The position numbers and the translations under genes are program-made. The notes below the pieces were generated by a model that saw only the letters and a program-made list of their open reading frames with translations, ran no database searches and was not told the origin of the DNA. Positions 3,321 to 35,765 of a DNA stretch of 44,377 bases are shown here, piece after piece. Each line of letters opens with the position of its first letter. The first letter of the stretch is position 1. The stretch is from a virus, in IMG/VR virus record IMGVR_UViG_3300048134_000198; one strand, 5' to 3'.

Positions 3321-3665
3321 ATGAGTGACAACACTACTAAGGACGGTGCGGAGGACGGACGGGCAACCACTCACTGGGACCTGCACTGTAGCCGGTGCGG
3401 CGATGAGTACCCAGCCGACCGCGAGAACGCGCTCTGCGAGTCCTGCGTCAAGAGCATCCAGATGTCAAAGCTCATGGACGGCGTGCTCTGCGAGCGGTGC
3501 GACGGCGAGGGCTGGATATACGGGACGTGGTGCGACCTGGAGCGCGCGATGAACGGCCGCGACACTCGCTGTCCAGAGTGCCACGGCACGGGTCGCGTCG
3601 AGTGGGAGCCAGACCCCGACGACGTCCACCCCGACCTTCGAGCGGAGGTGAAGGCCCGTGCCTGA
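3321..3665 (+). CDS. Zn-finger protein (two CxxC pairs plus DnaJ-like CxxCxGxG x2)
   Basis: CSRC, CESC, CERCDGEG, CPECHGTG. Confidence 0.8.
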   Translation: MSDNTTKDGAEDGRATTHWDLHCSRCGDEYPADRENALCESCVKSIQMSKLMDGVLCERCDGEGWIYGTWCDLERAMNGRDTRCPECHGTGRVEWEPDPDDVHPDLRAEVKARA

Positions 3666-3915
3666 AGACCGCGAGACGGTTTTCGTCGCCGGTCGGCAGA
3701 ACGGCGGTGGCGGAACGCGGAAGAAACACACCGCGGAGGACTGCCCGGCACTGGAGAAAGCACAGACCGTCATCCAGCGCCCACGAGACGTCTACCCGGA
3801 CGACATCGAGTGGTGCCGGTATTGCACGGACGATATCGAACGGTCTGGGCCACAGGACCACTCGCACTACAACGCACTCGCAGCTGCCGCGGACACGGAG
3901 GGCGATAGCGCATGA
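3658..3915 (+). CDS. small Zn-binding protein
   Basis: H-x4-C...CRYC; starts and stops overlap neighbours. Confidence 0.75.
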   Translation: MPEDRETVFVAGRQNGGGGTRKKHTAEDCPALEKAQTVIQRPRDVYPDDIEWCRYCTDDIERSGPQDHSHYNALAAAADTEGDSA

Positions 3916-6275: not shown

Positions 6276-6881
6276 ATGTCCATCACCACCCACCACTCAG
6301 ACACTCGTCCACGCAGCCAGACGTACACCTGCAAGCGGGACGCCTGCAGGGGCGTCGTCACCCCTGGGGCTGCAATCGAGGGGTACTGTAGCCACGAGTG
6401 CCAGCTCCGCGCCCAGGGCCAACGCCTGCTGAACCTCGTGAAGCACGACCACCGGTTCTGCTACACGTGCTTCCGCCAGCTCAAAGAGGTGCATGACGTC
6501 CCGGCGTGGCGCCGCCGCCGCCTCGACCCGGTCACCGAGTCCGTCGTCACCGGCTATCAGTCCCGTACCGAGCACGCCCAGCTCGGGGAGCGCCGCGAGC
6601 AACGCCCCGGGACGCTCCCGGACGACACGCGCCGCGGGACGATCTGTGAGTGCGGGCAGACGAGTCACCGGGACCGCGAGGGGTTGATTCAGTCGTCGAA
6701 CATCAAGACGGTGGCGCGGAACCTGTACGCGACGCTGGAGACGCTCGGCGAGGAAGGCCAACACTCCAGTTGCGTCGAGTACCTGCCGCTGGTGCGGGTG
6801 TTGTACGCGCAGTACCAGCACGACCCAGGGTACGACTTCCCAACGGCCGTCGCACTCGCTACCACGGACGGTGAGTCGTGA
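6276..6881 (+). CDS. Cys-rich protein, possible late transcription regulator
   Basis: C-x4-C...CSHEC, CYTC, CEC motifs; own TATA-like element (TTTACAAG ~6171) and structured leader. Confidence 0.75.
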   Translation: MSITTHHSDTRPRSQTYTCKRDACRGVVTPGAAIEGYCSHECQLRAQGQRLLNLVKHDHRFCYTCFRQLKEVHDVPAWRRRRLDPVTESVVTGYQSRTEHAQLGERREQRPGTLPDDTRRGTICECGQTSHRDREGLIQSSNIKTVARNLYATLETLGEEGQHSSCVEYLPLVRVLYAQYQHDPGYDFPTAVALATTDGES

Positions 6882-7045
6882 TGGATACCGTTGAGGAGCC
6901 CGCGATGAGCTCGGTGCTCGCCCAGCAGGAGGGCGACTACTGTACGGTCTGCCACTCGCCGGCGACCGGGTCGTACAACGGCGAGGACTACTGCGACACG
7001 CACCTCCAGGAACGCATGGCGCGCGAAACCGGGGTGGGATACTGA
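6881..7045 (+). CDS. 54-aa Zn-finger microprotein (CxxC...CxxH)
   Basis: CTVC...CDTH; TGATG couplings at both ends. Confidence 0.65.
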   Translation: MDTVEEPAMSSVLAQQEGDYCTVCHSPATGSYNGEDYCDTHLQERMARETGVGY

Positions 7046-7233: not shown

Positions 7234-7239
7234 CCCCCT

Positions 7240-7290
7240 GTCCCGATGACCCGGTTTGGACAGCCCCCTCGGGGGCTGGAGGCGAGGGCC
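7240..7290 (+). ncRNA. K-turn-like element K1
   Basis: CCC-GAT-GA-C-CC...GG-C-GA-GGG enclosing the perfect hairpin CAGCCCC-CTCG-GGGGCTG. Confidence 0.5.
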
Positions 7291-13058: not shown

Positions 13059-13102
13059 AGCCCTGATGACCGCGGGCGCGCCCGACGACCCGCGCGAGGA
13101 CT
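13059..13102 (+). ncRNA. K-turn-like element K2
   Basis: CC-TGAT-GA-C-CGCGGG...CCCGCG-C-GA-GG. Confidence 0.55.
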
Positions 13103-13123: not shown

Positions 13124-14848
13124 ATGACAGACTACGAGAGTCGCCAGTTCACCAAGCAGGTCGCAATCAAGGCGACCGACGACGCCGAGCAGATAGCCAC
13201 GGGGCTCGCGCTCACCGCCGGCGAAGTCGACCACCAGCTCGACTTCTTCCGCCCGGATGGGGTCGAAGCGATGTACAACCCCAGTCCGGACCACGGCGTG
13301 ATGCACGGCCGCTTCCCGGACGACGACGCTGAGCTCGTCCGGAACGAGGTCCTCGACGAGCCCGAGGAGATCGACGGCGCCGCGTTCGAGGCTGGCGACT
13401 GGGTCGTCCAGCGCCAGTACCACAACGACGACCTCTGGGAGTTCGTCGAGCGCGGTGTCCTCAACGGCTACAGCATCGGCGGCCAGGTCACCGAGGCTAT
13501 CGAGTACGAATCGGTTGAGGACCTGCCGGACGACGTCGACATCCCCGACGTGGTCGACCCCGAGGCGGTCGACGACAAGTACCACCCACCGACAGAGGTG
13601 ACGAACGGGTTCGTCAGCGAGGTATCTGACGTCGACATCCCGGCTGTCGTCTCCGCTCAGTTCGCGACCACGAAGGCGGACAAGTCGATTGTCGATGACG
13701 TCGCCGGCGAAGACGAGTTCGTCGACGTCATGACCAGCCGTGGTCACGACGAGGCGGACGTCCGCGACCTCTGGACCTACCTCGAGTCGATTGACGCTGG
13801 CGACGACAAACATGCAATGAGCAAGTCACAGACAGACCCCGACGCCGACGCGCCCGACCTCGACGAGGAGGACGTCGGCTTCCTGAAGCGCCTCCGACAA
13901 GCGGTCACCAAGAGCGACGGCGACGCGGAGCCCGATGACGACGACACCCCCACGCCGGGGCAGTCCGAGGTCTCCGACGTCACGCTCGCGAAAGCCCTCG
14001 CTGCATCGAAGGAGGGCCGGCCGCTGAACGCCGACAACCGGGAGGCGCTGATGGCGGCCCACGACGCGGTCGAAGCCGCGCTGGCGTCGGACATGAACCT
14101 CGAGACGAATCGGTTTACAGACGACCCCGAGTCGGACTTCGACCTCACCGCGTACGCCGACGAGTTCGGCAGCGACGACGGCGACGAGGATGGCGAGAAG
14201 GCCGCGCCGGTTGAGAAGCTGACCGAGGAGCAAGGCGACCTCGTCGTCAACGCGCTCCAACGCTTCATCGACAACCAAGGCGAGGCGCCATTCGCGGATT
14301 TCTCCTCGTGGATCTGGCAGACGGACGTCCTCGACGACGACACCGCATTCGCGGCCGACGAGGCTGTCTGGCAGTACCGCGAGTACGTTCGCGAGCAGCG
14401 CGACGAGACGCCGGTCACCGAGGACTTCGCAGACTGGGTGGCCGAGGAGTCCGACACCGACACCGACCTCACCATGAGCAAGAACGACAACAGCGGCGAC
14501 GACGGTGGCGATCCGTTCGCTGACGCCCCGGAGTGGGCGAAGGCACTCAAGGAACAGCAGGAACAGAACAGCAGCCGCATCGACGACGCCCTCGACAAAT
14601 CGGGCGACACCGACGACGATGGTGACGATGACGGCGACAAGGCGTTCGAGGATGCCCCGGAGTGGGCGAAGGCGCTGAAAGAAGAGCAGGAGAAGAACGC
14701 TGAGCAGATCGAGACGATCTCGAAGCAGACTGGCGCGAGCCAGCAGGTCGACGGCATGGAAAAGACTGGCGAGGACGGCGACCTGTCCGAGGATTCGACG
14801 GAGTTCAAGAAGGCGCTCGGCGGCGGCGTCGGCGGAGGTGCCAACTGA
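13124..14848 (+). CDS. XkdF-like prohead protease fused to acidic scaffold
   Basis: VDHQLDF, GVMH, GDWVV, GVLNGYSIGG; acidic C-terminus with duplicated motif. Confidence 0.85.
   Translation: MTDYESRQFTKQVAIKATDDAEQIATGLALTAGEVDHQLDFFRPDGVEAMYNPSPDHGVMHGRFPDDDAELVRNEVLDEPEEIDGAAFEAGDWVVQRQYHNDDLWEFVERGVLNGYSIGGQVTEAIEYESVEDLPDDVDIPDVVDPEAVDDKYHPPTEVTNGFVSEVSDVDIPAVVSAQFATTKADKSIVDDVAGEDEFVDVMTSRGHDEADVRDLWTYLESIDAGDDKHAMSKSQTDPDADAPDLDEEDVGFLKRLRQAVTKSDGDAEPDDDDTPTPGQSEVSDVTLAKALAASKEGRPLNADNREALMAAHDAVEAALASDMNLETNRFTDDPESDFDLTAYADEFGSDDGDEDGEKAAPVEKLTEEQGDLVVNALQRFIDNQGEAPFADFSSWIWQTDVLDDDTAFAADEAVWQYREYVREQRDETPVTEDFADWVAEESDTDTDLTMSKNDNSGDDGGDPFADAPEWAKALKEQQEQNSSRIDDALDKSGDTDDDGDDDGDKAFEDAPEWAKALKEEQEKNAEQIETISKQTGASQQVDGMEKTGEDGDLSEDSTEFKKALGGGVGGGAN
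14514..14698 (+). repeat. duplicated scaffold motif F-x-DAPEWAKALKE-x-QE-x-N
   Basis: Copies at ~14514-14569 and ~14643-14698. Confidence 0.8.
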
Positions 14849-14849
14849 C

Positions 14850-15890
14850 ATGACTGACATCCAAGACGCACGCGACGCGAACACGCAGGCCGTACAGAAG
14901 CAGACCATCGACACCTCGCAGCTGAACGGCGCACAGCTCCCGCGAGATCTCTTCGAGCGGTTCATCGAACGCCAGCAGCGCGAAGCCACGCTGCTGTCGG
15001 ACGTCCGCGTCGAGACGCTGCCGCGCCTCGAGATGGGCGTCCCGAAGCTCGGCGTCCCCGAGCTCTCCGGGAGCGTCCGCAGCGAGGGCGGCGAGGACGC
15101 CACCGGGACCGACAACGCCGACGCAGAAACGGGGTCGGTGGAGTTCAACGCGACCGACCAGTCGTACTACATCCAATACGACCTGAAGCGGGACGCGGTG
15201 AAGAACGTCATCACCAGCGAGGACGCTGTCGCGGACGTCATTCTCTCGCACTTCGAGCGTGCGTGGGGCAACGACGTCCAGAACATCGGCATCAACGCTG
15301 GCCGGAGTGGGAGCGGGCTGCCGGCGCAGTTCAACGACACGTTCGACGGCTGGATCGCCATCGCCGAAGGCAACGACACCGCCTCCGACCGGATCGGCAC
15401 GGGCGAGGAGGCGGACGCCTCGACGATGCCGACCTACAACCACTCGGACAGCAACGGGAATGCGCAGCCGGTGAACACTGCGCTGTTCAACGCGATGATT
15501 CAGACGGTGCCCGAGCGGTACCGCGACCCGGACACGCTGCAGTTCCACACCTCGAAGAGCCAGGTGCAGGACTACCTCTACCGGCTCACCGAGCGCGAGG
15601 ACGCGCTGGGCGCGGCGGCCGTGATGGGTGACAGCGACATCACGCCGTTCGAGTACGACGTCATCGGGCGGTCGTACTGGCCGGACGATGTCATGATGCT
15701 GGTCGACCCGCAGAACCTCGTGTACGGGCTCTTCGAGGAGGTCGAGATCACGCAGCTCGTGCAGACTGACCAGACGATGGAGCGCCGCCTCCACTCCCGG
15801 AACCTCCTGGAGGGACAGTTCGACTTCCAGATTGAGGAGCTGCAGGCGGGCGCGCTCGGGACGAACATCGCGGCGCCGAACGCGGTCTAA
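14850..15890 (+). CDS. major capsid protein (HK97 fold)
   Basis: Size ~346 aa, position after protease/scaffold, G-x-L-P, FDGW and DPQNL motifs. Confidence 0.88.
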   Translation: MTDIQDARDANTQAVQKQTIDTSQLNGAQLPRDLFERFIERQQREATLLSDVRVETLPRLEMGVPKLGVPELSGSVRSEGGEDATGTDNADAETGSVEFNATDQSYYIQYDLKRDAVKNVITSEDAVADVILSHFERAWGNDVQNIGINAGRSGSGLPAQFNDTFDGWIAIAEGNDTASDRIGTGEEADASTMPTYNHSDSNGNAQPVNTALFNAMIQTVPERYRDPDTLQFHTSKSQVQDYLYRLTEREDALGAAAVMGDSDITPFEYDVIGRSYWPDDVMMLVDPQNLVYGLFEEVEITQLVQTDQTMERRLHSRNLLEGQFDFQIEELQAGALGTNIAAPNAV

Positions 15891-15903
15891 GAGGTGACTT
15901 AGC

Positions 15904-16104
15904 GTGACTACTACTCAGAACGAGCTTCGGCGGCGCTACGAGGATGGCTACGCCCTCAACGACGCCGTCGAACTGCCGTTCAGCGACGCCGAGCCCGACA
16001 CACCGGATGATGGTCCCGTGCTCTACGCGGAGGACAACACCAACGAGGAACTGAAGGTCAAGTTCACTGACGGCACGACGAAGGTCGTGACCGACAACGC
16101 CTGA
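15904..16104 (+). CDS. 66-aa virion (possible decoration) protein
   Basis: Directly after MCP with GAGGTGA SD. Confidence 0.6.
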   Translation: MTTTQNELRRRYEDGYALNDAVELPFSDAEPDTPDDGPVLYAEDNTNEELKVKFTDGTTKVVTDNA

Positions 16105-16115
16105 GGTGACCTAAG

Positions 16116-16481
16116 TTGGTTACCATCCGCCACGAACGCGGCCCCGGTCGGTTCGCACACGCCGCCCTCGACGGTATCTCCGGGTATGGCGACATCCACG
16201 ACGTCTCCGAGGCTGCGGCGGAGTACCTCTGCGATGAGGTGGGGTACTTCGACCGCGCGAACGTAACCGACGTCGAGTACGAAGAAGTCGAGAAGGACGA
16301 CGACACTCCTGGGTCGGACGCCGGTCTCGAGTACGAGGAGGTGTCCGCCATCGAGGATCGCATCGACGCCGGCGAGTGCCCCTGGTGCGACGACTACGAG
16401 GGCGACGGCGTCCCCCAGCACGCCGCTAGCGCACACGCCGACGAGTGGGCGGCGTACAAGGCCGAAGTCGAGGAGGAGTAA
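16116..16481 (+). CDS. acidic protein with C2H2-type Zn finger
   Basis: CPWC...HAASAH; GAGGTGA SD. Confidence 0.7.
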   Translation: MVTIRHERGPGRFAHAALDGISGYGDIHDVSEAAAEYLCDEVGYFDRANVTDVEYEEVEKDDDTPGSDAGLEYEEVSAIEDRIDAGECPWCDDYEGDGVPQHAASAHADEWAAYKAEVEEE

Positions 16482-16487
16482 CTCGCT

Positions 16488-17234
16488 ATGCCTGAGGGGT
16501 ACTGCACCTTAGTGGACGTCCGGAAAGCACTCCGGCAAGCCGACCTCCCGGGTGACGTCAGCCAAGACCCAGCAATCGCGGTGAAGGCAATCGTCGCGCA
16601 GACGGAGCCGCTGGAGAAGGAACTGAAGCGGCACTGGTACGCCCAAGAAGGCGACCAGATCGTCACCGAGGCCACCGAGGTCGACATCCCGCAGTCGCCG
16701 AAGACGCGGGACGACGAGTACGACATCCCGACCGGCGCCGCCTGGACGGTCGACGACTCGGGCCCGACGCCGAAGACGTCGCAGGGCGACTACGCGAAAA
16801 TCGAACTTGCGCGGCGGGATGCCGAGTCTCTCTCGGCGTTGCACGTCCGGACTGAGGATGGCACCTATGAGGATTGGGCGGCGAGCGCGGACTACTCGGA
16901 GGGCTCGTGGCCGCCATCGGGGGAGGACTACTACCTCCGCGTGAACAACGGCGGCTGGAGTCGACTCTATCTCGACACGACGAACTTCCTCAAGGACGGC
17001 GAGGACGACGAGTACGTCCTCGACTCCTGGGCGAACGCAATCTACCTCGAGTGGGACTATGGACATTCCGGAATTCCGGAGAACGTCCGGCGTGCGGTCG
17101 CCTTCAGGGCGGCCGCGGACCTCGTCGAAGAGCCTGCGTATTCTATACCCGATAATTCGGAGGTGTACGGCGCCGAATCGAAAGCCAGCGAGTTGCGCGA
17201 CCAGGCGAACGATCTCCTCGAGGTGTACAAATGA
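16488..17234 (+). CDS. head-tail adaptor protein
   Basis: N-terminal YCTLVDV and C-terminal GIPENVRRAVA adaptor-like pattern; position. Confidence 0.7.
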   Translation: MPEGYCTLVDVRKALRQADLPGDVSQDPAIAVKAIVAQTEPLEKELKRHWYAQEGDQIVTEATEVDIPQSPKTRDDEYDIPTGAAWTVDDSGPTPKTSQGDYAKIELARRDAESLSALHVRTEDGTYEDWAASADYSEGSWPPSGEDYYLRVNNGGWSRLYLDTTNFLKDGEDDEYVLDSWANAIYLEWDYGHSGIPENVRRAVAFRAAADLVEEPAYSIPDNSEVYGAESKASELRDQANDLLEVYK

Positions 17235-17395
17235 CGTCACTCGTCGACGTCCTGGCCACGGCTATCGGCGTCATCACTGGGACGTGGCTGTACCATGCGT
17301 GGCGGGACCGCAGCGCCGACGGCGATCCTCGGTGGCTGTACCGCTCTCGTGTTTCGGAGACGTCGGACGAGGATCCGCGCACGGAGGAACAGTGA
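17231..17395 (+). CDS. 54-aa single-TM microprotein
   Basis: ATGA overlap; hydrophobic N-terminus LVDVLATAIGVITGTWLY. Confidence 0.55.
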   Translation: MTSLVDVLATAIGVITGTWLYHAWRDRSADGDPRWLYRSRVSETSDEDPRTEEQ

Positions 17396-17402
17396 CCCCA
17401 CG

Positions 17403-17945
17403 ATGCCAGATGAGAATCCTGCGGCGACGGTCACCCTCGACTTCACCCTCGACCTGCAGACCGACCCCTTGGGCGCCGTCCTGGAGGTCTCGGTGCCCGA
17501 TGCGTCCAGTCAGGGAGCGCGGGAGGCGTTCCTCGACTCCGCCGAAGCGGCGCTCGTCGGCCAACGAGGGAACCTCGTCGCCCAAGCAGTCTCGGAGGCA
17601 CACGGCCAACTCGCATCCTACGCCTCGGCACAAGGCGGGTACGCGTACGATCCCGTCGAGGAGTCCTTCCAGGGCGTCACTGTTGAGCGCGGCCAACGCG
17701 GCCTCACCATCGAGTGGTCGTGGGACTCCGAAGTGGCAGAAATATGGGAGTTCGGCTGTCCGCCCTATACTATAAATGGGTCGCCGTTAGCGTTTGAGTT
17801 TGATTCTGCGGAGTATCCGGGGCTTGCGGAAGCGTTCCCGAAGGGAACTGCGTTTCTTCAGGAAGTCGAGCATCCGGGGTTTCCGGAAGCTCGCTGGGTT
17901 AGAGATAGCCTCCACTGGTTGCGGCGAGAGGTGGCTCAGACATGA
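17403..17945 (+). CDS. HK97 gp10-like neck/tail completion protein
   Basis: WEFG...HPG-x-P-x-R-W-x-RDS pattern; position. Confidence 0.7.
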   Translation: MPDENPAATVTLDFTLDLQTDPLGAVLEVSVPDASSQGAREAFLDSAEAALVGQRGNLVAQAVSEAHGQLASYASAQGGYAYDPVEESFQGVTVERGQRGLTIEWSWDSEVAEIWEFGCPPYTINGSPLAFEFDSAEYPGLAEAFPKGTAFLQEVEHPGFPEARWVRDSLHWLRREVAQT

Positions 17946-17983
17946 TAAAAGAATCGACGATGGGGAAGTTCCCTGGTAGGGGG

Positions 17984-18316
17984 TTAGTCGTCGTTAGTTG
18001 TCCACTGGATGGGGTTGCCGTTTTCGGTGGTCCACTGGACGTCGAAGGTGACGTGGTTGAAGAGGAGTTCGTCCATGTCGGGGTCGTAGCCGAGTGCTTG
18101 CTGGTCCTGGTATTTCAGCATGGCGCGCTCAAGAAGTGGCTGCGGCAGTTCGACGGTGGCTTCCCGCGCCTCCATGCGGGGGAGTTTGACGTCGAGGTGC
18201 AGGCGAATCGCACGCTCGATGTAGTCCGAGACGGTTTCGTCGTCGCGGGCTTCGAGTTCGATCCAGTCGGCGAGCGGTTCGGTGACCTCGATCTCGATAA
18301 TCCGCGTCCCTGTCAT
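17984..18316 (-). CDS. A1: 110-aa ribbon-helix-helix-like protein
   Basis: IEIEV-helix-ETVSDYIERAIRLHL pattern; paralog of B1. Confidence 0.75.
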   Translation of the reverse strand: MTGTRIIEIEVTEPLADWIELEARDDETVSDYIERAIRLHLDVKLPRMEAREATVELPQPLLERAMLKYQDQQALGYDPDMDELLFNHVTFDVQWTTENGNPIQWTTNDD

Positions 18317-18429
18317 AGGCTGTCGAGGAAGGCTTGGCAGTCGTGGTCGTCGATGCGTTCGGGCAGCCCGACAGCACCACACACCATGCACTCCTGTAAT
18401 TCGGGGCCAACGCAAGTGTCGTCGGTCAT
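18313..18429 (-). CDS. A2: 38-aa Zn-finger microprotein
   Basis: MTDDTCVGPELQECMVCGAVGLPERIDDHDCQAFLDSL; 36/38 identical to B2. Confidence 0.75.
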   Translation of the reverse strand: MTDDTCVGPELQECMVCGAVGLPERIDDHDCQAFLDSL

Positions 18430-18431
18430 GG

Positions 18432-18611
18432 TTAGGTGTGCTGGCAGCCGGGGGCGTGGTCGAAGTTCTGGACGCCGTCGGCGAGGACTTCCCGATTACA
18501 GTCGGGGCAGCGGTAGTAGCGTCGGCCGCCTTGGGCGAGTGGTTCGATGTACGGTCCGTCTAGGTGGGTCGTGGGGTCAGTCTTACATGACCTGGAAGCG
18601 TTCGTACTCAT
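18432..18611 (-). CDS. A3: 59-aa CxxC...HxxxC microprotein
   Basis: MSTNASRSCKTDPTT...YRCPDC...HAPGC; shares its N-terminus with B3. Confidence 0.65.
   Translation of the reverse strand: MSTNASRSCKTDPTTHLDGPYIEPLAQGGRRYYRCPDCNREVLADGVQNFDHAPGCQHT
18567..18605. repeat. 39-bp direct repeat copy 1 (38/39 identical to 21632-21670), contains GGTCA-N8-TGACC
   Basis: Direct comparison. Confidence 0.85.
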
Positions 18612-18631
18612 GGGTTCTTGGCTACTCGTTG

Positions 18632-18687
18632 GGAACCCGGGTCCGGTGTTCTAGCACCGGGCCGCTTTCTGCGGCACCCCGCGTTCC
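18632..18687 (-). promoter_or_regulatory. conserved three-way-junction 5' leader, copy A
   Basis: Outer stem, GCCGC-AGAAA-GCGGC, CCGGTG-CTAGAA-CACCGG; begins ~26 nt downstream of TTTTATA. Confidence 0.65.
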
Positions 18688-18690
18688 TAC

Positions 18691-18749
18691 TTGGTTGTAT
18701 GTGCCCAGCCAGTATAAAACTTGGCCTATACAACCAACCTTGGTTGTAT
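18691..18749. promoter_or_regulatory. divergent promoter with operator: TTGGTTGTAT...ATACAACCAA-CC-TTGGTTGTAT
   Basis: Perfect 10-bp palindrome arms plus a third half-site flanking the TATA. Confidence 0.65.
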
Positions 18750-18788
18750 CGGCCCATTTATGGGCCTACGTCACCAACACCGAATTGT

Positions 18789-19013
18789 ATGAGCACCACA
18801 AACCAGACGTCCATGGGAACTGGACGCGGCATCCTCACCGACTACGAACGCGACTGCCTCGCCGGCGAACACGAAAAACAGCGCGAATACGAAGCCCGCT
18901 CCCGAATCCGCGCGCGCCTCGACGGCCCGCTCGCAGAGGACATCCAGCACCTCAAAGAACACGACCCCGACCTGCTCGAAGAACTCCGCGACGTCGTCTG
19001 CCAGGAGGACTAA
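18789..19013 (+). CDS. A0: 74-aa small putative regulator
   Basis: GRGILTDYER...HDPDLLEELRDVVC; paralog of B0. Confidence 0.8.
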   Translation: MSTTNQTSMGTGRGILTDYERDCLAGEHEKQREYEARSRIRARLDGPLAEDIQHLKEHDPDLLEELRDVVCQED

Positions 19014-19015
19014 CC

Positions 19016-20224
19016 ATGCCCAAAACCCGCGACGACGTCGAACCCTGGCAGGACAAGGAAACTCTCGAATGGGCGTACCACGAGAAAGACAAATCCCGCA
19101 GAGAAGTTGGCGACTTGTTGGGCTGCTCTGGCGGGGCTATACGATACCGGATGGACAAGTACGGTATCGAAGCTGACCCAGGCCCCAACCGGGAAGGGCC
19201 GTGGCGAGACAAAGAGACTCTCAAACGCGAGTACATCGAGAAGGAACGCCCGATGAGCGAACTCGCCGACGCCTGGGACACCGGCATCGCAACTATCTCT
19301 CGGTGGTGCGATGAGCACGACCTCGAAACTCGCGACCGTTCCCAGTCTGGCGAGGATCACTGGAACTGGAAAGGGGGGCGGTCATACCATGGGGCGGCCG
19401 GTGAACCCCGCGACTGTCCGGTCTGCGGCGAAGAGTTCAAGCCGACCGATTCCCGGCAGATAACCTGCTCACGGTCTTGTGCGGCTGAACGCCTCAAAGA
19501 CCGCGTGACGAAAACCTGTGAGACGTGCGGCGAGGACTTCGAAGTCCTCAACTGCCGGGAGGAGACCGCACGGTACTGTTCCCGTGACTGTAAGCCCATC
19601 CCGGAGGACTTCCCGGGGCGGGAGATCGACGGGCTGGTCACACTCGAATGCGAGTGGTGCGGCGACAGCTTCGAGGTCTATCCATCGAAGACTCATCGGC
19701 GGTTCTGCGGGCAGGAGTGCATGGAAGAGTGGTCCAGTTCACGGACGGGCCCCGATCATCCAAACTGGGAAGAAAAGAGTGTGGTAGACTGCCATACATG
19801 CGGCGAGGAAATTGAACTCGCTCCCTGGCAGATAGGCCGGGCAGAACGTAGATTCTGCTCACTTGAGTGCCGGAAAGAATGGCTGTCGGAACACTACAGC
19901 GACCGCTGGACTGGGTCCGACCATCCGAATTGGAAAGGTGGTGTCAAGCCGTACGGCGAAGGCTGGAATGACACCAAGCGAAAGAAGGTCCGCGTTCGTG
20001 ACCAGGCCCGGTGCCAGGATTGTGGGATGACCGAAGCCGACCACGTCGAAGAGCACGGGGAAAAACCACATGTGCATCACGTGGTGCCGGCTCGGGAGTT
20101 CGACGAACCCGAGGAGCGGAACGCGATGGCGAACCTGATTACGCTCTGCCGGAGCTGCCACCTCGGGAAGTGGGAGTCGATGCCCGGACTCCGGCCGGAT
20201 ACCCGCGAACAGACTGCCGACTAA
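19016..20224 (+). CDS. HNH endonuclease A (HTH repeats, CxxC...CSxxC repeats, NWKGG motifs, C-terminal HNH)
   Basis: CQDCG...HVHHVVP...NAMANLITLCRSCH. Confidence 0.9.
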   Translation: MPKTRDDVEPWQDKETLEWAYHEKDKSRREVGDLLGCSGGAIRYRMDKYGIEADPGPNREGPWRDKETLKREYIEKERPMSELADAWDTGIATISRWCDEHDLETRDRSQSGEDHWNWKGGRSYHGAAGEPRDCPVCGEEFKPTDSRQITCSRSCAAERLKDRVTKTCETCGEDFEVLNCREETARYCSRDCKPIPEDFPGREIDGLVTLECEWCGDSFEVYPSKTHRRFCGQECMEEWSSSRTGPDHPNWEEKSVVDCHTCGEEIELAPWQIGRAERRFCSLECRKEWLSEHYSDRWTGSDHPNWKGGVKPYGEGWNDTKRKKVRVRDQARCQDCGMTEADHVEEHGEKPHVHHVVPAREFDEPEERNAMANLITLCRSCHLGKWESMPGLRPDTREQTAD

Positions 20225-20232
20225 CACGCCCG

Positions 20233-20258
20233 CCGATGACCCCCGGAGGGGGCGAGGA
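20233..20258 (+). ncRNA. K-turn-like element K3
   Basis: CC-GAT-GA-C-CCC-GGAGG-GGG-C-GA-GG; canonical stem only 2 bp. Confidence 0.45.
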
Positions 20259-20314
20259 CCTGCAGCGAGATTTCTCACGACGATGAACACCACCCTACAG
20301 AGAGCTACCGCCAC

Positions 20315-20839
20315 ATGACCGCAGAAACCGCCTGGGTCCTCGAGCAGTTCGCGAGCGTCGCAACAGACGTCGCCAACGAGTACACGCTCGAGAGTGGCGA
20401 CCCCGTCGAGTTGGAGCGCGTGAACCGGGACGAGTCCCGACTCCTCGAGCAGGACGTCCAATCCATCAGGGGCGACCTGGAGCAGGCGGCGTTCGTCGGC
20501 GCTACCCACGTCGACACTGTGGAGGAGCCGATGGGCAGCCAGTATGATCTCCAGCGGGAGGTCGTCGTCGGCGTCCGCGTCACGGGGCTTACCGCCCAGG
20601 GCTCGTACGGCCACATCGACCCCAGCGGCGAGGACGGCATCCCGTTCACTGGCGACGGCGGCCTCGTCCAGCGCTGCAAGGACGCACTCCTCTCGGAGCG
20701 CAAGTGGCCGGACGCCGGCCCCGCGGACGTCTCCTACCCGCACTTGGAGTTGCAGAATGAGGTGAACACCAGCCAGCAGTGGGCGGATTTCTACCGCTGG
20801 GACGCGGACGTAGTATTTAAAGGACACCGGGATTTGTAA
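20315..20839 (+). CDS. tail terminator/minor tail protein, 174 aa
   Basis: Acidic; position between gp10-like gene and tail tube once the cassettes are removed. Confidence 0.65.
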   Translation: MTAETAWVLEQFASVATDVANEYTLESGDPVELERVNRDESRLLEQDVQSIRGDLEQAAFVGATHVDTVEEPMGSQYDLQREVVVGVRVTGLTAQGSYGHIDPSGEDGIPFTGDGGLVQRCKDALLSERKWPDAGPADVSYPHLELQNEVNTSQQWADFYRWDADVVFKGHRDL

Positions 20840-20863
20840 CGATGTCTACGCCAACGACGCCAC

Positions 20864-20888
20864 AAGAAAAACCCCGGGCTACGGGGTT
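20864..20888 (-). terminator. terminator of cassette B minus-strand operon
   Basis: AACCCCG-TAGCC-CGGGGTT followed by a T-run on the minus strand. Confidence 0.6.
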
Positions 20889-21267
20889 AGTCGTCGTTAG
20901 TTGCCCATTCGATGGGGTTGCCGTGTTCGGTGATCCAGTTGACGTCGAAGTGGACGTAGTTGAAGAGGAAGTCGTCGGGGTTGACGTCGATGCCGCGGGC
21001 TTGGCAGTCTCGGTATTTGTAGGTGGCGCGTTCGAGGATTTCGTGGGGGATGGCGACGTCGACTTCGCCGGCGGTCATGGTGCCGTGGAGGTCTTCCTCA
21101 AGGCGGAGTTGGACTGTCTCGGCGATCCACTCTGGGACGCTGTAGTGGTCGCGTTTTTCGAGGAGGAGCCACTTGAGCATGGGCTGGGTGAGTTCGAGTT
21201 CGATGGTTGCCCAGTCGTCGCCGCGTGGTTCGATGTCGTCGAGGTTGTCGAAGTCGAGTTCGGTCAT
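20887..21267 (-). CDS. B1: 126-aa RHH-like protein
   Basis: Paralog of A1; both end in W-x-TNDD. Confidence 0.75.
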   Translation of the reverse strand: MTELDFDNLDDIEPRGDDWATIELELTQPMLKWLLLEKRDHYSVPEWIAETVQLRLEEDLHGTMTAGEVDVAIPHEILERATYKYRDCQARGIDVNPDDFLFNYVHFDVNWITEHGNPIEWATNDD

Positions 21268-21380
21268 AGGCTGTCGAGGAATCGCTGGCAGTCGTGGTCG
21301 TCGATGCGTTCGGGGAGGCCGACCGCGCCACACACGGGGCATTCCTGTAGTTCGGGGCCGACGCAAGTGTCGTCGGTCAT
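21264..21380 (-). CDS. B2: 38-aa CPxCG Zn-finger microprotein
   Basis: MTDDTCVGPELQECPVCGAVGLPERIDDHDCQRFLDSL. Confidence 0.78.
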   Translation of the reverse strand: MTDDTCVGPELQECPVCGAVGLPERIDDHDCQRFLDSL

Positions 21381-21676
21381 GGGTCGAGGGTGGCGGCGAT
21401 GGCGTTGCCGGGGGAGTCGAACATGTACTGGGTCGTCCAGCCGCGCTCCGTTCGGACGTAGTCCATCCATTCGTGGACGCTGCGGCCGTCGAGGGCTTCG
21501 ACGTGCTCGCGGTTGCCGTCCGCGTCGACGACGTGGATGGTTTCGTCGGTCGTGCGGTAGACGTGCGAAGCGTGCTCGGTGTCTACGCCGAGGCGGATGT
21601 AGGTTGGTCGCGGGTCGGTACGCCGGTTCGCGGTCGTGGGGTCAGTCTTACATGACCCGGAAGCGTTCGTTGACAT
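21377..21676 (-). CDS. B3: 99-aa hypothetical protein
   Basis: MSTNASGSCKTDPTT... then a body unrelated to A3. Confidence 0.7.
   Translation of the reverse strand: MSTNASGSCKTDPTTANRRTDPRPTYIRLGVDTEHASHVYRTTDETIHVVDADGNREHVEALDGRSVHEWMDYVRTERGWTTQYMFDSPGNAIAATLDP
21632..21670. repeat. 39-bp direct repeat copy 2 (GGGTCA-GTCTTACA-TGACCC)
   Basis: Direct comparison with 18567-18605. Confidence 0.85.
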
Positions 21677-21691
21677 GCTTCGGTGGTTGCC

Positions 21692-21748
21692 GAAGCGCGG
21701 GCGGGCGTCCAAGCGCCCGTCCACTTTCCTGTGGCAGTCCCGCGCTTC
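21692..21748 (-). promoter_or_regulatory. conserved three-way-junction 5' leader, copy B
   Basis: GAAGCGCGGG/CCCGCGCTTC closing CCAC-AGGAAA-GTGG and CGGGCG-CTTGGA-CGCCCG; ~26 nt downstream of TTAAGT. Confidence 0.65.
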
Positions 21749-21809
21749 TTACTGTATACAATAAGCCCCAGCCACTTAACCTTACCGAATACAGAAAGGC
21801 TTACTGTAT
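21748..21809. promoter_or_regulatory. divergent promoter with operator CTTACTGTAT...ATACAGAAAG-G-CTTACTGTAT
   Basis: Same layout as the cassette A operator, different half-site. Confidence 0.55.
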
Positions 21810-21853
21810 TGGGAAAGGTACAAGGTGGTGGGGAGAGTATTACCGAATGAAGT

Positions 21854-22084
21854 ATGAAAGCACCCACCGAACACGAGGCCATGTCCCAAGGACGCGGCCT
21901 CCTCACCGAACGCGAACGCGAGGCAATCGCCGGCGAGACCTCCGACTCGTACCGCTACAAGACTCGGTCGTTCTTCCGCGACCGGCTGGAGGCTCTTGAG
22001 GACGACGTCGACGTCCTCGAAGAACACGACCCCGAACTGCTCGAAGAACTCCGCGACGTCGTCTGCCGAGAGGAGGAGGACTAA
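21854..22084 (+). CDS. B0: 76-aa small putative regulator
   Basis: GRGLLTERER...HDPELLEELRDVVC. Confidence 0.8.
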   Translation: MKAPTEHEAMSQGRGLLTEREREAIAGETSDSYRYKTRSFFRDRLEALEDDVDVLEEHDPELLEELRDVVCREEED

Positions 22085-22089
22085 CACCT

Positions 22090-23271
22090 ATGCCCAAAAC
22101 CCGGCGCGACGTCAAACCCTGGCAAGACGAGGAAACCCTTCGGTGGGCATACCACGAAAAACACCTCTCGCAAGATGAGGCCGGACATCTCCTTGGCTGT
22201 TCAGGCAGAACAGTCGGAAATTGGATGTTTAGAAATGATATTGAGGCGCGCTTTGATGGCGGGCATGGGCAAAAGCGAGACATCTCCAAGGAGAAAGTTG
22301 AAGAATTATTTGTTGACCAAGAGATGTCTCCGTCCGAGGTTGCCGAAGCGTTGGATCGTTCGGAGAGTAACATTCAGGAATATATTCACGCATGGGGGTT
22401 GAAGGCGGAAGTGGACGGACCTTACGATTGTCCACAATGCCAGTTCTCATTTAACTCAGAAAAGGCGAAAAACACCCACTGTGCGAATGTACATGGGGAA
22501 TATACGGCACAACAAGCAGTTCCATGTGACAACTGCGGAGAGCAAACAACTAAATATAAATCTGAGATGGGCCGGTATGACTACCACTATTGTTCCCCTG
22601 AATGCCGCGAGAATCACCAGTCGACTCTCCCTCCTGAAGAACAACCCGCATGGAACGGTGGCAAAGTCACCGTCGAATGCGCCTACTGTGGTACTGAAAA
22701 GAAAGTCACTCCCTCCCGCGTTGAACAAACAGATAACTTCTTCTGTGATGGGGAATGCTACGGGAATTACAAATCGAGTGAAAATAGCCACCCAGAACCC
22801 AATACTTACACAGGCCCAAACCACCCGCAGTGGAACAGTATTGAGATTGAGTGTGATTGGTGTGGCGGAACTGACTACAAGCCCCCCGCAAGAATTGAAA
22901 GGAGTGAACAGGACTTCTGTTCGCCCGAATGCCACAATAAGTGGATGGCTGAAAACCAGGTTGGCCCAGCCCATCATCAGTGGGAGGGGGGAAGATTGGA
23001 CTACGGGAAGGGTTGGACGCCCAAAAAACGCCGCAAAGTCCGCTCCCATGCCGACTTCCAATGCGAGGACTGTGGAATGCCCCAAGAAGACCACTTAGAC
23101 TGGTGTAACCGGAAGCTCCACGTTCATCATGTTATCCCGGCTAGACAGTTCGACGATCCAGAAAAGCGAAACGCGGTAAGCAACCTTGTAGCCCTTTGCA
23201 TCCCTTGCCACAGGAAATGGGAGTCGATGCCAGGCCTCCGCCCGGATACTCGCGAACAGCCCGCTGACTAA
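22090..23271 (+). CDS. HNH endonuclease B
   Basis: Same architecture as HNH A; CEDCG...HVHHVIP...NAVSNLVALCIPCH; visibly more AT-rich interior. Confidence 0.9.
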   Translation: MPKTRRDVKPWQDEETLRWAYHEKHLSQDEAGHLLGCSGRTVGNWMFRNDIEARFDGGHGQKRDISKEKVEELFVDQEMSPSEVAEALDRSESNIQEYIHAWGLKAEVDGPYDCPQCQFSFNSEKAKNTHCANVHGEYTAQQAVPCDNCGEQTTKYKSEMGRYDYHYCSPECRENHQSTLPPEEQPAWNGGKVTVECAYCGTEKKVTPSRVEQTDNFFCDGECYGNYKSSENSHPEPNTYTGPNHPQWNSIEIECDWCGGTDYKPPARIERSEQDFCSPECHNKWMAENQVGPAHHQWEGGRLDYGKGWTPKKRRKVRSHADFQCEDCGMPQEDHLDWCNRKLHVHHVIPARQFDDPEKRNAVSNLVALCIPCHRKWESMPGLRPDTREQPAD

Positions 23272-23274
23272 CAC

Positions 23275-23317
23275 GCGGTCCTGATGACGCCCTGAAGCCC
23301 GGAGGGTCGAGGACTGC
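23275..23317 (+). ncRNA. K-turn-like element K4
   Basis: GCGGTCC-TGAT-GA-C-GCCCT...AGGGT-C-GA-GGACTGC (7-bp canonical stem). Confidence 0.6.
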
Positions 23318-23389
23318 CGGCACGCGACACACACGTTTTCACGAACTCATGACCATGAGCGACACGCACACGAATAGAGGTGGAACCAC

Positions 23390-24337
23390 ATGACCGGAGC
23401 AGGCAGTGTCAGTCACTTCTGCTTCGCAAAAGAACAACCCACCGCCGACGGTGAAGACCTCCCTGGCGACCTCGTCGACTCCGACAGCGACGGCACACCA
23501 GAATACTACGGCTGGGGGCGGAACGCAACCATCGCCGACCTCACCCTCAACCGGCAAGCCGACCGCCTGAACGACCCAACAGAAGTCGAATCCGTCGAAT
23601 CCACTCCCGGCAAGCTCGAAGGCACCCTCACCGTCGAGGGCACCGTCTCCGACCTCCAAACCCACCTCCACGACATCATCTTCTCCGATGGCAGTGGCTT
23701 CACGTCGGGCCAGCCACCACTCTCGCGCGTGTTCCTGGGCGTCTCCCATATCGACGGGAGTGTCGGCCGAGAGCTGCGTGGCTGCGTGCCCCAGGAATAC
23801 TCGCTGTCCTTCGATGATGACACGTCGACGGTGACGTATTCGCTGACGCTCGGCTTCGCCATGGAACCGGATACACCATCGACTATCGACCCATCGAATA
23901 TCACCACTGCGTCGACGGGGGAGACGGCACCGTTCCACGGGTTCTCGTTCAGCCTGGATTCAGCAACAGTCTCGAAGCTGTCGACATGCGAGCTCACGAT
24001 CAGCAATATCTCGCGGTACCACTACGGCCCGAATCAAGAGCCGGTGGACGCGACGATTGCGAAGCCCGAGGTGGAGGTCTCCGCCACGGCGATCTTCACG
24101 AGCGGGTCCGCGGATCGGCTGGAGCTCGCGTACGGCGGCAGTGGGGCGTCGAGTCTCCAGTCGGATCTGTCGTCGGTCAACGGTGAGATCGACGTCCAGG
24201 GGCCGAGTGGGAGTCTCGCATCGTACACGCTGCCGAGCGTGGCGCTCAACGAACAATCCTGGGAGAACGTGATCAGCGAAGAAGACACGACCGACAGTGT
24301 GACAGGGCACGTCAACGGCGGCATCGAGGTGGCCTAA
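23390..24337 (+). CDS. major tail (tube) protein
   Basis: 315 aa, S/T-rich beta pattern, two-domain tube-like layout, GAGGTGG SD, position before chaperone and tape measure. Confidence 0.8.
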   Translation: MTGAGSVSHFCFAKEQPTADGEDLPGDLVDSDSDGTPEYYGWGRNATIADLTLNRQADRLNDPTEVESVESTPGKLEGTLTVEGTVSDLQTHLHDIIFSDGSGFTSGQPPLSRVFLGVSHIDGSVGRELRGCVPQEYSLSFDDDTSTVTYSLTLGFAMEPDTPSTIDPSNITTASTGETAPFHGFSFSLDSATVSKLSTCELTISNISRYHYGPNQEPVDATIAKPEVEVSATAIFTSGSADRLELAYGGSGASSLQSDLSSVNGEIDVQGPSGSLASYTLPSVALNEQSWENVISEEDTTDSVTGHVNGGIEVA

Positions 24338-24339
24338 CG

Positions 24340-24948
24340 ATGGCACTCCAGACTGAGACGTACGATCTTGAGGCGGAGGTACAGCGGCTCGAGGACAAGA
24401 TCAGCGAACTCGACGACATCCTCTCTGGGATGACCGCCGACCACGATGCGCGTGGCGGGCTCGTCGAGACGAAACAACAGCTATCCATGCAGGCGAACGG
24501 CGTCCGGTGGGCCGCCCGTGAGGCTGCCGACGCGGACTACCTGCCGGATGGCCTCTGGGACGAGGACGTCGATGAGATCACGCTTGCCGGGCTGACGTTC
24601 GGCGAACGGTCCAAAGTGACGGACAACATCCCGGCGGACGCGGGCCGGGAGGCCCGCCGCGGGGAGTTCGTCGCGGCGGGGTCAGTGCATCCACGAGATG
24701 AGAGTATCGTGGATGACGAGGTGGTTGAGGTGCCGGCGCCGGCGCCGTACGTTGACCCGAAGCCGAGCGAGCAAACCGGCGAGGAACGCCTTGGCGTGGT
24801 TGGTCGGCTGCCGGCGCCGTATGTGGAGTGGGCGTTCGCGCGTGTCGACGAGTTGACTACTGTAGGGGGAAACGGGAGGCTGAACTTCGAGGCGTTGCGC
24901 GCGGAGATCGAAGCGACGTCTCCCGGGGGGTCGAGCGAGATCTCTTGA
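24340..24948 (+). CDS. tail assembly chaperone (0-frame product)
   Basis: Between tube and tape measure; contains a slippery heptamer. Confidence 0.75.
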   Translation: MALQTETYDLEAEVQRLEDKISELDDILSGMTADHDARGGLVETKQQLSMQANGVRWAAREAADADYLPDGLWDEDVDEITLAGLTFGERSKVTDNIPADAGREARRGEFVAAGSVHPRDESIVDDEVVEVPAPAPYVDPKPSEQTGEERLGVVGRLPAPYVEWAFARVDELTTVGGNGRLNFEALRAEIEATSPGGSSEIS

Positions 24949-25070
24949 AGGGGTTGGCGATGCTGAATGGCCACGATCCTCGGGAGATCGATGAGTATGC
25001 GTACCGTGATTTGGAGGTGATGGTGATTGTCGCCGACGAGAAAGGGACCGTGCCTGACGACCTGGGTTAG
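24867..25070 (+). CDS. -1 frameshift extension of the tail assembly chaperone (G-T type)
   Basis: G GGA AAC at 24867-24873 in correct phase; -1 frame open to 25070 (...LLKGLAMLNGHDPREID...). Confidence 0.75.
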   Translation, partial: GKREAELRGVARGDRSDVSRGVERDLLKGLAMLNGHDPREIDEYAYRDLEVMVIVADEKGTVPDDLG

Positions 25071-25213
25071 GAGAGTTCGACGGCGCGAACGATGAGGATC
25101 ATCACGGCGGCACCGCCGAGTACGACGGCGAGGATGAATCGCTGCGGCCACATCCCGCCAGCAATCACGGCGAGCGCGAGTAGCAGACCGGCGAAGGGGA
25201 TTGCGTCGTCCAT
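25067..25213 (-). CDS. 48-aa two-TM antisense microprotein
   Basis: MDDAIPFAGLLLALAVIAGGMWPQRFILAVVLGGAAVMILIVRAVELS; TTAAGTA ~24 nt upstream. Confidence 0.65.
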   Translation of the reverse strand: MDDAIPFAGLLLALAVIAGGMWPQRFILAVVLGGAAVMILIVRAVELS

Positions 25214-25257
25214 ACGAGCACGTTCAGAGCCGATTTACTTAACAGTATACCCACACG

Positions 25258-34758: not shown

Positions 34759-35096
34759 TGTCCGACGACAAGCCCCAGCTGATGGTCGGGGACCACGTAC
34801 TCGACAAGGAGGACGACGACGCGACGCTGCTCGTCACCGCCGTTAGTCCCCAGACGGCCGAGGAGTACGACGTCGGCGACAAGACCGTCGCAGCGTATAA
34901 CGAGGACTACCCCCGCGATGATGACGTCATCGAGGTGCGGTACCCCCAGCGCACCACCCAGGACGTCGACCGCCTCGACGACTACGCGTTCCCACGGTCG
35001 CGGTTGGAGCTCGAGACGCCGCTACACGACCGCGACGACGGTGAGGACGAGGATGGGTTCGGGACGACCGTCATCGAGGGGGCGACCGATGAGTGA
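34758..35096 (+). CDS. 112-aa SH3-like acidic protein
   Basis: VGDHVLD...VIEVRYP...YAFPRSRL; coupled. Confidence 0.75.
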   Translation: MSDDKPQLMVGDHVLDKEDDDATLLVTAVSPQTAEEYDVGDKTVAAYNEDYPRDDDVIEVRYPQRTTQDVDRLDDYAFPRSRLELETPLHDRDDGEDEDGFGTTVIEGATDE

Positions 35097-35433
35097 CCAC
35101 GACACCGGCAGCCCAGCGAGCCGCCTCGAGGGCGCACGCAAGCAACTGCGGCTCGCCCTCCAACAAGTGGACGACCCCAGCGTCGCGGCCCGCATCCAGG
35201 ACGCCCGCCGGAGTGCTCGCCAAGCTAGCGACGCGCTGGTGTCGGCGCCGATCACGACCGACCCCATTCCCGAGGATACTGTCGGGCAGGCGCTCGTCGA
35301 ATGCACCTGCTGCGGCAAGACCGGGCTCGCCGAACGCATCCACTCGACCGCGTGCCCCCACGACAGCAGCAGTGAGGGCGACGAAGAGAGTCCGGGCATC
35401 AGCACGGTCGTCACCCAGGACGGTGATCAGTGA
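35089..35433 (+). CDS. 114-aa protein with A2/B2-type Zn finger
   Basis: ECTCCGKTGLAERI-x4-C aligns with ECPVCGAVGLPERI-x4-C. Confidence 0.75.
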   Translation: MSDHDTGSPASRLEGARKQLRLALQQVDDPSVAARIQDARRSARQASDALVSAPITTDPIPEDTVGQALVECTCCGKTGLAERIHSTACPHDSSSEGDEESPGISTVVTQDGDQ

Positions 35434-35765
35434 TGGCTGCCGTCCAAACCAGCGCGGATGTCCTCGACCGGCGTGACGCCGCCGCCCTCACAGAGTGTAT
35501 GTCCGTACTCGACGACATCGGCTGGGCGCGAGATAGTCCCGGCTTGTATCTCGTCGTCACCGAGTCCGGTGCCTGCTATCGCGTCGACGTTCGCGAAGGG
35601 CGCTGCAACTGCAGCGACCAGTTCTACCGCAACCCCACGGGCGGCTGCAAGCACGTGCGGCGGGTCCAATATGCTATCCAGGAGCGGGAGATCCCCGACT
35701 GGGTCAACGAGGATCGCGTCGACGACCAGCTCGGCGAGCACGTCCAGGGGGCCAGTGATGAATAA
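35430..35765 (+). CDS. SWIM Zn-finger protein
   Basis: YRVDVREGRCNCSD...CKH (CxC-xn-CxH). Confidence 0.85.
   Translation: MMAAVQTSADVLDRRDAAALTECMSVLDDIGWARDSPGLYLVVTESGACYRVDVREGRCNCSDQFYRNPTGGCKHVRRVQYAIQEREIPDWVNEDRVDDQLGEHVQGASDE

Follow-up and report, generated by a model that had tools for sequence, protein, structure and literature searches.

The 44,377-nucleotide (nt) IMG/VR sequence IMGVR_UViG_3300048134_000198 (the whole stretch analysed, called the window below) represents a tailed virus or provirus of haloarchaea (GC content 64%), and its late genes are distantly related to those of the Halorubrum viruses BJ1 and CGphi46 (Graaviviridae). Its plus-strand late operon is broken twice between 17946 and 23361, once on each side of a 174-aa gene, by inserts of 2.4-2.5 kb that each carry an HNH nuclease gene and a divergent set of small genes. 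The question raised by this locus is what these two inserts, cassettes A and B, are and how they came to lie within a late operon. We consider it reasonably probable that each cassette is a free-standing homing-type HNH nuclease equipped with an early-type promoter module and a 3' RNA element. Comparison with related sequences suggests that each is self-contained and horizontally mobile in haloarchaeal tailed viruses.

The two cassettes share one layout. On the minus strand, a gene whose product starts with MSTNAS (A3/B3), a 38-aa zinc (Zn) finger gene (A2/B2) and a ribbon-helix-helix (RHH)-like gene (A0/B0) are tightly packed; on the plus strand, a gene of ~75 aa (A1/B1) is followed by a multi-Zn HNH gene of ~400 aa and a kink-turn (K-turn) hairpin. 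A control region of 177 nt separates the genes of the two strands. Cassette A (17946-20314), 2369 bp long, is inserted where the stop and start codons of two late genes overlap at ATGA. Its leftward operon consists of A3 (59 aa, Zn-ribbon-like, 18432-18611), A2 (CxxC...HxC, 18313-18429) and, as the last gene, A0 (110 aa, 17984-18316); across the control region (18612-18788), A1 (74 aa, 18789-19013) heads the rightward operon, followed by HNH-A (402 aa, 19016-20224) and, 8 nt 3' of the HNH-A stop codon, by a K-turn-like hairpin found by pattern match (20233-20257, plus strand). Cassette B (about 20864-23361, ~2.5 kb) lies in the short spacer before a 315-aa tail gene. It comprises B3 (99 aa, 21377-21676), B2 (21264-21380) and B0 (126 aa, 20887-21267) on the minus strand, its control region (21677-21853), and, on the plus strand, B1 (76 aa, 21854-22084), HNH-B (393 aa, 22090-23271) and, after the stop codon, a K-turn-like hairpin, again a pattern match (23280-23312). 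The A1/B1 gene ends 2-5 nt ahead of the HNH start codon. All the elements named in an earlier sequence-only reading, which had proposed a self-regulated mobile unit of haloviruses, were found in place in both cassettes.

That reading had called for a search for cassette-free relatives, and the search defined empty sites at both junctions. Both cassettes are absent from an IMG/VR contig (L003) and from a provirus of Halobacterium sp. CBA1126 (L004), in which the flanking genes are 68-84% identical to those of the window, as well as from BJ1 and CGphi46. Junction 1 is flanked on the left by a 216-aa late gene (17295-17945, plus strand; phrog_18530), whose 68% identical homologues in L003 and L004 adjoin the 174-aa gene (20315-20839, plus strand; phrog_25153). 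The latter is a homologue of BJ1 gp59, with 74-77% identity in L003/L004 and 34% in BJ1. In L003 the two flanking late genes overlap at ATGA with nothing between them, and in the window ATGA is present at both ends of cassette A. At junction 2, the right flank of which is the 315-aa tail gene (23390-24337, plus strand; phrog_18409 'minor tail protein'), the spacer of L004 aligns to 20842-20863 and 23362-23389 of the window, again with nothing between. A profile scan gave 34 further IMG/VR relatives, 29 of which were scored at junction 1 and 23 at junction 2. Junction 1 was empty in all 29 (gap 0-260 nt). The gaps at junction 2 were 49-188 nt in 17 of the 23, 352-479 nt in four and ~1 kb in two, and large inserts were found in L157 (3.3 kb, with an A1+HNH cassette) and L159 (4.6 kb of unrelated cargo). 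This junction was thus empty or held other cargo in 22 of the 23, L157 being the only one of them with an A1+HNH cassette; a further virus, L008, which was found through a search with A1, also has a cassette there. A megablast search of window positions 15000-26000 against phages gave no match. These alignments show that each cassette was inserted precisely between two genes of the head-tail/tail operon of a BJ1-like siphovirus, with the presence/absence polymorphism between conserved neighbours by which homing endonuclease genes are recognised.

Other sequences were also seen at these sites. The insert of L159 (10874-15479) encodes a beta-helix-like protein and several minus-strand membrane proteins and is partly low in GC. 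In L004, a membrane-protein-like open reading frame (ORF) of ~57 aa (6822-7001) lies at junction 1, where the window has cassette A, indicating that junction 1 also takes small inserts.

The cassettes could instead be ordinary, non-mobile accessory genes, acquired by illegitimate or homologous recombination, with the HNH proteins serving the DNA metabolism of the virus itself, for example in packaging or in host DNA breakdown. The unrelated inserts at junction 2 in L159, L164 and L166 and the small membrane ORF of L004 are in agreement with this, and HK97-like phages are well known to have HNH genes whose products assist the terminase. However, the cassette genes do not lie beside the terminase or portal gene, as would be expected of a terminase-associated HNH nuclease of the HK97 gp74 type, but in the head-tail/tail module, and they are missing from most relatives. 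Because the cassettes are absent from nearly all relatives, they cannot be essential. Furthermore, one genome holds two diverged copies, and the nucleases have variable DNA-binding bodies between conserved ends, as expected of homing enzymes. We therefore regard accessory genes of this kind as an improbable explanation.

Both large proteins were identified as HNH nucleases by their matches to PF01844 (31.4 bits for HNH-A and 31.6 bits for HNH-B, against a curated Pfam cut-off of 21.4 bits) and to phrog_8446, the halovirus 'HNH endonuclease' family (E 1.5e-51 and 1.2e-38, respectively). The HNH domain is C-terminal, and upstream of it are two helix-turn-helix (HTH)-like units and four Zn-ribbon CxxC...CxxxC repeats. 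Residues C333, C336, H354, H355, N369, N373, C378 and H382 are invariant in the four cassette HNH proteins, and the beta-beta-alpha-metal motif is complete, with its CxxC, the HH general-base pair, the Asn residues and the final CxxH. The sequence-only reading had named two observations that would tell against it, strictly vertical inheritance of the cassettes and inactive HNH proteins; instead, many empty alleles exist and the HNH motif is intact. Intron or intein homing is excluded, because both insertions lie between genes, and the genes on either side are uninterrupted and align collinearly with their homologues. A single-protein scan of IMG/VR with HNH-B gave no match.

According to the homing reading, the HNH enzyme, with its two HTH units, four Zn ribbons and HNH domain, would cut, close to the junction, the cassette-free alleles of relatives that are co-infecting or already resident, and the cassette would then be copied into the broken allele during recombinational repair. 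Haloviruses such as HVTV-1 and HCTV-5 have numerous and variable homing endonuclease genes (PMC3950731). The cassettes resemble the free-standing HNH homing genes of phages and haloviruses in their modular DNA-binding repeats, their position between conserved genes in structural modules and their presence/absence polymorphism. Among such free-standing systems is the intronless homing of the T4 type. The same enzyme acting on the same targets could also serve competition or superinfection exclusion, in which the HNH protein destroys the DNA of cassette-free competitors, the leftward genes act as regulators or immunity genes, and spread is a side effect. The presence/absence data fit this explanation equally; expression driven by an early-type module would be suited to attacking genomes that enter the cell, and two cassettes with different DNA-binding bodies and operator repeats would widen the target range. 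In a PADLOC search, however, the bare HNH domain alone gave matches (15-32 bits), far below the cut-offs, for example to Zorya II ZorE (NCBIfam cut-off 600 bits); no full-length match to a known anti-phage defence system was obtained, and the other eight cassette proteins had no matches. Nor is any dedicated immunity gene conserved across the cassettes, A0/B0 being missing in L008, L009 and L157. A dedicated competition module is thus unlikely in our view, although homing and competition are not separable by sequence data alone.

If the cassettes are homing units, related copies would be expected at other sites and in other genomes, and the same cassette type was found at tail-module sites in four other viruses. 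In L009, a different virus, A2, A3, then A1, HNH and K-turn occur in this order between the tape-measure and baseplate-hub genes, and L008 and L157 have A1, HNH and K-turn at junction 2 together with other leftward genes. The full layout is present in a cultured virus, HJTV-4 (OP374082.1; Natrinema thermotolerans A29), as gp33-gp38 before the tape-measure gene, where the annotation consists only of hypothetical proteins and an 'HNH endonuclease'. HJTV-4 gp35 starts with MSTNAS and is 44% identical to A3 (E 6e-11), gp36 is 40% identical to A1, and gp38 is 38% identical to HNH-A and has the same C-terminal tail. A leader and palindromic repeats are likewise present in its control region, and a K-turn-like motif follows the HNH stop codon, with a stem that is shorter (2 bp) than in the window. 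HJTV-4 is an unrelated virus, and its cassette differs in its site and in an extra ORF, gp37. This ORF (1935-2363 of the HJTV-4 locus) ends in a second A1-family C-terminal peptide (LEELQDVVCEEE) directly before the HNH start codon, which looks like a recombination scar at the A1/HNH joint. L017 has a protein 75% identical to B1 ahead of a nuclease of another type, which contains NUMOD3 repeats and an endonuclease-I-like domain; a baseplate gene comes immediately after it.

L008 and L157 show how such a cassette differs between very close viruses. Their flanks have 91-94.5% DNA identity, and the 2 kb between them are diverged except for two conserved patches (127 nt and 99 nt), which correspond to the leader and start of the leftward gene and to the place where A1 meets the start of HNH. 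On the right, the conserved flank already includes the last 38 nt ahead of the HNH stop codon. Cassette interiors have therefore been replaced between very close viruses, and the pattern mirrors that between cassettes A and B of the window.

The DNA of cassettes A and B has an overall identity of 52%, made up of five patches at 84-97% and of 35-50% elsewhere. The patches are the 3' end of A0/B0 with the hairpin beyond it, the A2/B2 genes, the first 15 codons of A3/B3, the A1/B1 3' end with the HNH start, and the HNH 3' end. At the protein level, A2 and B2 are identical at 36 of 38 positions, A0/B0 and A1/B1 are each 49% identical, HNH-A and HNH-B are 38% identical (E 2e-77), and A3 and B3 have their first 15 residues alone in common, the body of B3 (phrog_32485, E 3e-13) being unrelated to that of A3. 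The ends of the two HNH genes are 78-85% identical in DNA. The patchy similarity reported in the sequence-only reading was thus confirmed, as was the more AT-rich interior of HNH-B: this gene has a GC fraction of 0.51 (0.54 at third codon positions) compared with 0.64 for the window, whereas its ends resemble the rest of the genome. The low GC indicates that the HNH-B interior came from a foreign, lower-GC source. Judged by these identities, the two cassettes are paralogous but old. We considered all five near-identical patches as possible recombination handles and rejected this for the A1/B1 3' end, which has 82-94% DNA identity across many unrelated loci. The near-identical A1/B1 ends are real, but they appear to reflect mainly a very conserved peptide written in preferred codons rather than recent exchange.

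The nuclease gene would ride behind a phrog_26393 gene at a bidirectional control region, and we examined how general this arrangement is. The phrog_26393 family, to which A1 (E 1e-22) and B1 belong, is represented in haloarchaeal genomes and in metagenomes of hypersaline origin by at least 1131 clusters. The closest relatives of A1 are 97% (P0002) and 78% (P0035, on a 35-kb contig) identical to it, and proteins 75-81% identical to B1 are encoded in L017, L029 and L023. Nearly all of 68 distinct loci of the family lie at a divergent junction, often with an A2-, A3- or B3-like gene opposite. B3 homologues were found opposite A1 homologues in L015, L031, L072 and L075, A2 homologues in many metagenome loci, and an A3 homologue with 42% identity in L009. 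A nuclease is located downstream in only 3 of the 68 loci; A1 homologues precede a variety of genes, among them those for integrases, a J-domain protein and a Doc-like protein. The divergent operon is, on this comparison, a widespread early-switch module of haloarchaeal mobile elements and not specific to HNH genes. The sequence-only reading had stressed a regulated divergent operon around a free-standing HNH gene; the layout is indeed present, but it is not special to HNH genes, since the module is mostly nuclease-free.

In Humcor1 and in the Halorubrum tailed virus DL1, an A1 homologue heads one arm of a divergent junction, with a run of small genes opposite. It precedes PCNA, TFB and primase genes in DL1, not a nuclease, and an 87-aa hypothetical gene in Humcor1. 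The module occupies the main divergent region of these genomes, whereas those of the cassettes lie inside the late operon. Because this type of module sits at the main divergent junctions of Humcor1 and DL1, the HNH genes of the window are probably expressed early and independently of the surrounding late operon.

Several further observations were made on the A1 family. The DL1 record annotates ORF40 on the opposite strand where the A1 homologue lies (3465-3716), so the A1-family gene seems to be unannotated there. In L023 (642-2060), the protein 81% identical to B1 heads an operon of small Zn-ribbon proteins and a Fic/Doc-like protein (HLFEDGNKRTG), with an A3-like gene opposite and no nuclease. 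The 91.9-kb contig JGI12448J12851_1000034 has four identical copies of an A1 locus (L070, L071, L073 and L076) ~22.6 kb apart and is probably the concatemeric assembly of a circular element of ~22.6 kb. B1 was modelled as the representative of the A1 family, A1 being its 49% identical paralogue, and gave a three-helix model (pLDDT 83). The idea of an RHH or HTH protein was dropped, as VIA-align of the B1 model gave unspecific helical matches (Z <= 4.3). A Foldseek search of the PDB with the B1 and B0 models gave no match at E <= 0.001.

Within the control regions, the A3 leader (~18612-18690, minus strand) adjoins three operator-like TTGGTTGTAT half-sites in direct and inverted orientation (18690-18777), and control region B contains the B3 leader and CTTACTGTAT repeats. 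Control region B has 75-80% nucleotide identity to L023 and L017 across its 3' part (from 21733 and 21800) and B1. The repeats are cassette-specific, with other palindromes in L008, L009 and HJTV-4. In each control region they probably represent the operator, which fits a sequence-specific regulator encoded within each cassette. The leftward Zn-finger genes and the optional RHH gene may be co-travelling regulators or cargo. Transcriptional control of a homing nuclease gene has a precedent in I-TevI, which represses its own promoter. In I-TevI, however, the nuclease itself is the repressor, whereas the cassettes have separate small proteins and a bidirectional module that would carry out the putative regulation.

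The assignment of A0/B0 as RHH-like in the sequence-only reading was supported by the predicted fold of B0 (AlphaFold, pLDDT 86). Nearly all of the top ~40 VIA-align matches of this model were RHH domains (Z 4.0-5.6, residues 17-66), the best of which, including TacA1, PutA, CopA and NikR, had Z 5.0-5.6 and a root-mean-square deviation of 1.4-3.0 Å over 43-50 aligned residues; the Z scores are modest because the RHH domain is small. No Pfam, PHROG or PADLOC match was found for A0, and a single-protein scan of IMG/VR with B0 gave no match. The A0/B0 family has 26 representatives in 1.84 billion proteins and was seen in 2 of 401 haloarchaeal genomes, in neither of them close to another cassette gene. 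As the family is tiny and the cassettes of L008, L009 and L157 lack it, A0/B0 is, by this distribution, optional cargo outside the conserved unit. The layout with an RHH-like gene described in the sequence-only reading thus holds for A and B but not for these other cassettes.

The RHH fold of B0 raises the question of whether the cassettes are toxin-antitoxin-like addiction units, in which the HNH protein would be a toxin held by A0/B0 or by the acidic A1/B1, stabilising the provirus. The N-terminal half of B0 matches RHH domains that are mostly from antitoxins (TacA, CopA, MazE and ParD), giving a predicted RHH DNA-binding domain in a small protein, as in known antitoxins, and A1/B1 are small, acidic and helical, with a gene that ends immediately ahead of the HNH gene. 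The RHH fold, however, is equally common in plain repressors (Arc, CopG, NikR and SvtR). A0/B0 do not form a co-transcribed conserved pair with the nuclease, as they are on the strand opposite to HNH and absent from the other three cassettes just named, and A1-family genes mostly precede genes other than nucleases. An addiction unit is thus a very improbable explanation.

In A, B, L008, L009 and L157, the HNH stop codon is followed by the motif CC-GAUGA-C-stem-loop-stem-C-GAGG, which has the sequence order of a K-turn, namely a C-stem, a 3-nt bulge, tandem G.A/A.G pairs and a non-canonical stem. A structure-aware filter was used in the search, as a loose text pattern matches coding GAT-GAC runs by chance. 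The same motif is also native to the virus family: there it lies outside the cassettes, directly after the TAA stop codon of the portal gene (13062-13099, plus strand), and is kept in ~20 relatives. In a pair count taken on these native post-portal copies only, 112/112 cells were paired, three pairs had compensatory changes and 0/500 shuffles reached the observed score. The K-turn noted in the sequence-only reading as a cassette element is thus present in both cassettes, but it also belongs to the virus itself. An Rfam search of the whole region gave no match at E up to 1. Archaeal L7Ae binds K-turn RNA motifs, including K-turns in mRNA leaders (PMC5539422, PMC6298567), and these share with the hairpins of the window the C-stem, the 3-nt bulge, the tandem G.A/A.G pairs and a loop-closed non-canonical stem. 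The hairpins of the window differ in their location, which is immediately 3' of stop codons within the late operon of a virus and, in the cassettes, at the 3' end of a mobile unit. By analogy, the cassette K-turn is perhaps bound by L7Ae. The 3' K-turn would copy the post-portal element and probably acts on RNA, perhaps via L7Ae, keeping the next late gene expressed.

Further K-turn-like motifs were noticed. A longer variant is located at about 7244-7290, after a gene ending at 7234. Another GAUGA...GAGG hairpin-like motif, at 13934-13970, lies ~900 nt past the post-portal one and inside a 574-aa ORF; many relatives also have it, with stems that differ in sequence (e.g., L133 6461 and L137 6545), and it may represent either a second RNA element or a coincidence of the coding sequence. 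The insert of L159 also ends in TAA and a K-turn hairpin (15380) just before the tail gene.

Several points weigh against the homing reading. Junction 2 is a general hot spot that also takes the unrelated cargo of L159, L164 and L166, and insertion could therefore have occurred by ordinary recombination without help from the nuclease. No obvious similarity was found between the sequences of junction 1 and junction 2. Most phrog_26393 genes are unlinked to nucleases, so the A1-HNH pairing could be opportunistic, and a regulator role for A1/B1 is a guess from position, because the fold search gave no specific match. Finally, the short hairpins have no thermodynamic advantage in folding over shuffled sequences; energy folding does not model G.A pairs and is uninformative for GC-rich elements of this small size.

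More tentatively, the cassettes may belong to a composite family in which a homing nuclease, either HNH or NUMOD3/endonuclease-I-like, has captured a portable early-type bidirectional switch made up of a phrog_26393 gene, a structured leader and small Zn-finger genes, with the K-turn serving as an RNA 'punctuation mark', probably through L7Ae, and the conserved joints permitting swaps; we regard this as possible but doubtful. If it is true, a cassette could sit in a late operon without harming the downstream genes, and its nuclease bodies and regulators would be swappable. The modular DNA-binding nuclease, the precise intergenic insertion and the patchy distribution among relatives are known features of homing genes. 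The captured early-type bidirectional module, the conserved joints with exchangeable bodies and the 3' K-turn element are new. The cassettes differ from other free-standing HNH homing genes in that the nuclease is second in an operon behind a phrog_26393 gene, and in having a divergent Zn-finger/RHH operon, repeats of their own and a terminal K-turn hairpin. We did not find a composite nuclease cassette of this kind described in the literature consulted. To our knowledge, the expression and tolerance of homing nucleases inside essential haloviral operons have not been studied, and we know of no role for phrog_26393, a small protein that is very common among haloarchaeal mobile elements and for which the cassette family gives a first functional context. 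The cassettes provide a concrete architecture common to several viruses, with HJTV-4 as a cultured example, and suggest early expression from a borrowed switch, cassette-specific operators and a K-turn that also punctuates the late operon of the virus itself.

The virus also has an early switch of its own (33643-35765), in which a 167-aa winged-helix regulator-like gene on the minus strand is followed by a leader-bearing operon on the plus strand. This operon encodes proteins of 147 aa and 112 aa, an A2-like Zn finger (A2-like motif at 35281-35355) and a SWIM-type Zn-finger protein (phrog_17897). We considered A3 and B3 as homologues of the 147-aa early protein (34315-34758) and rejected this, as the BLASTP match was weak for A3 and not significant for B3. 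The structured leader of A3 aligns with the leaders of B3, L008 and L009 and with that of the native early gene at 34315.

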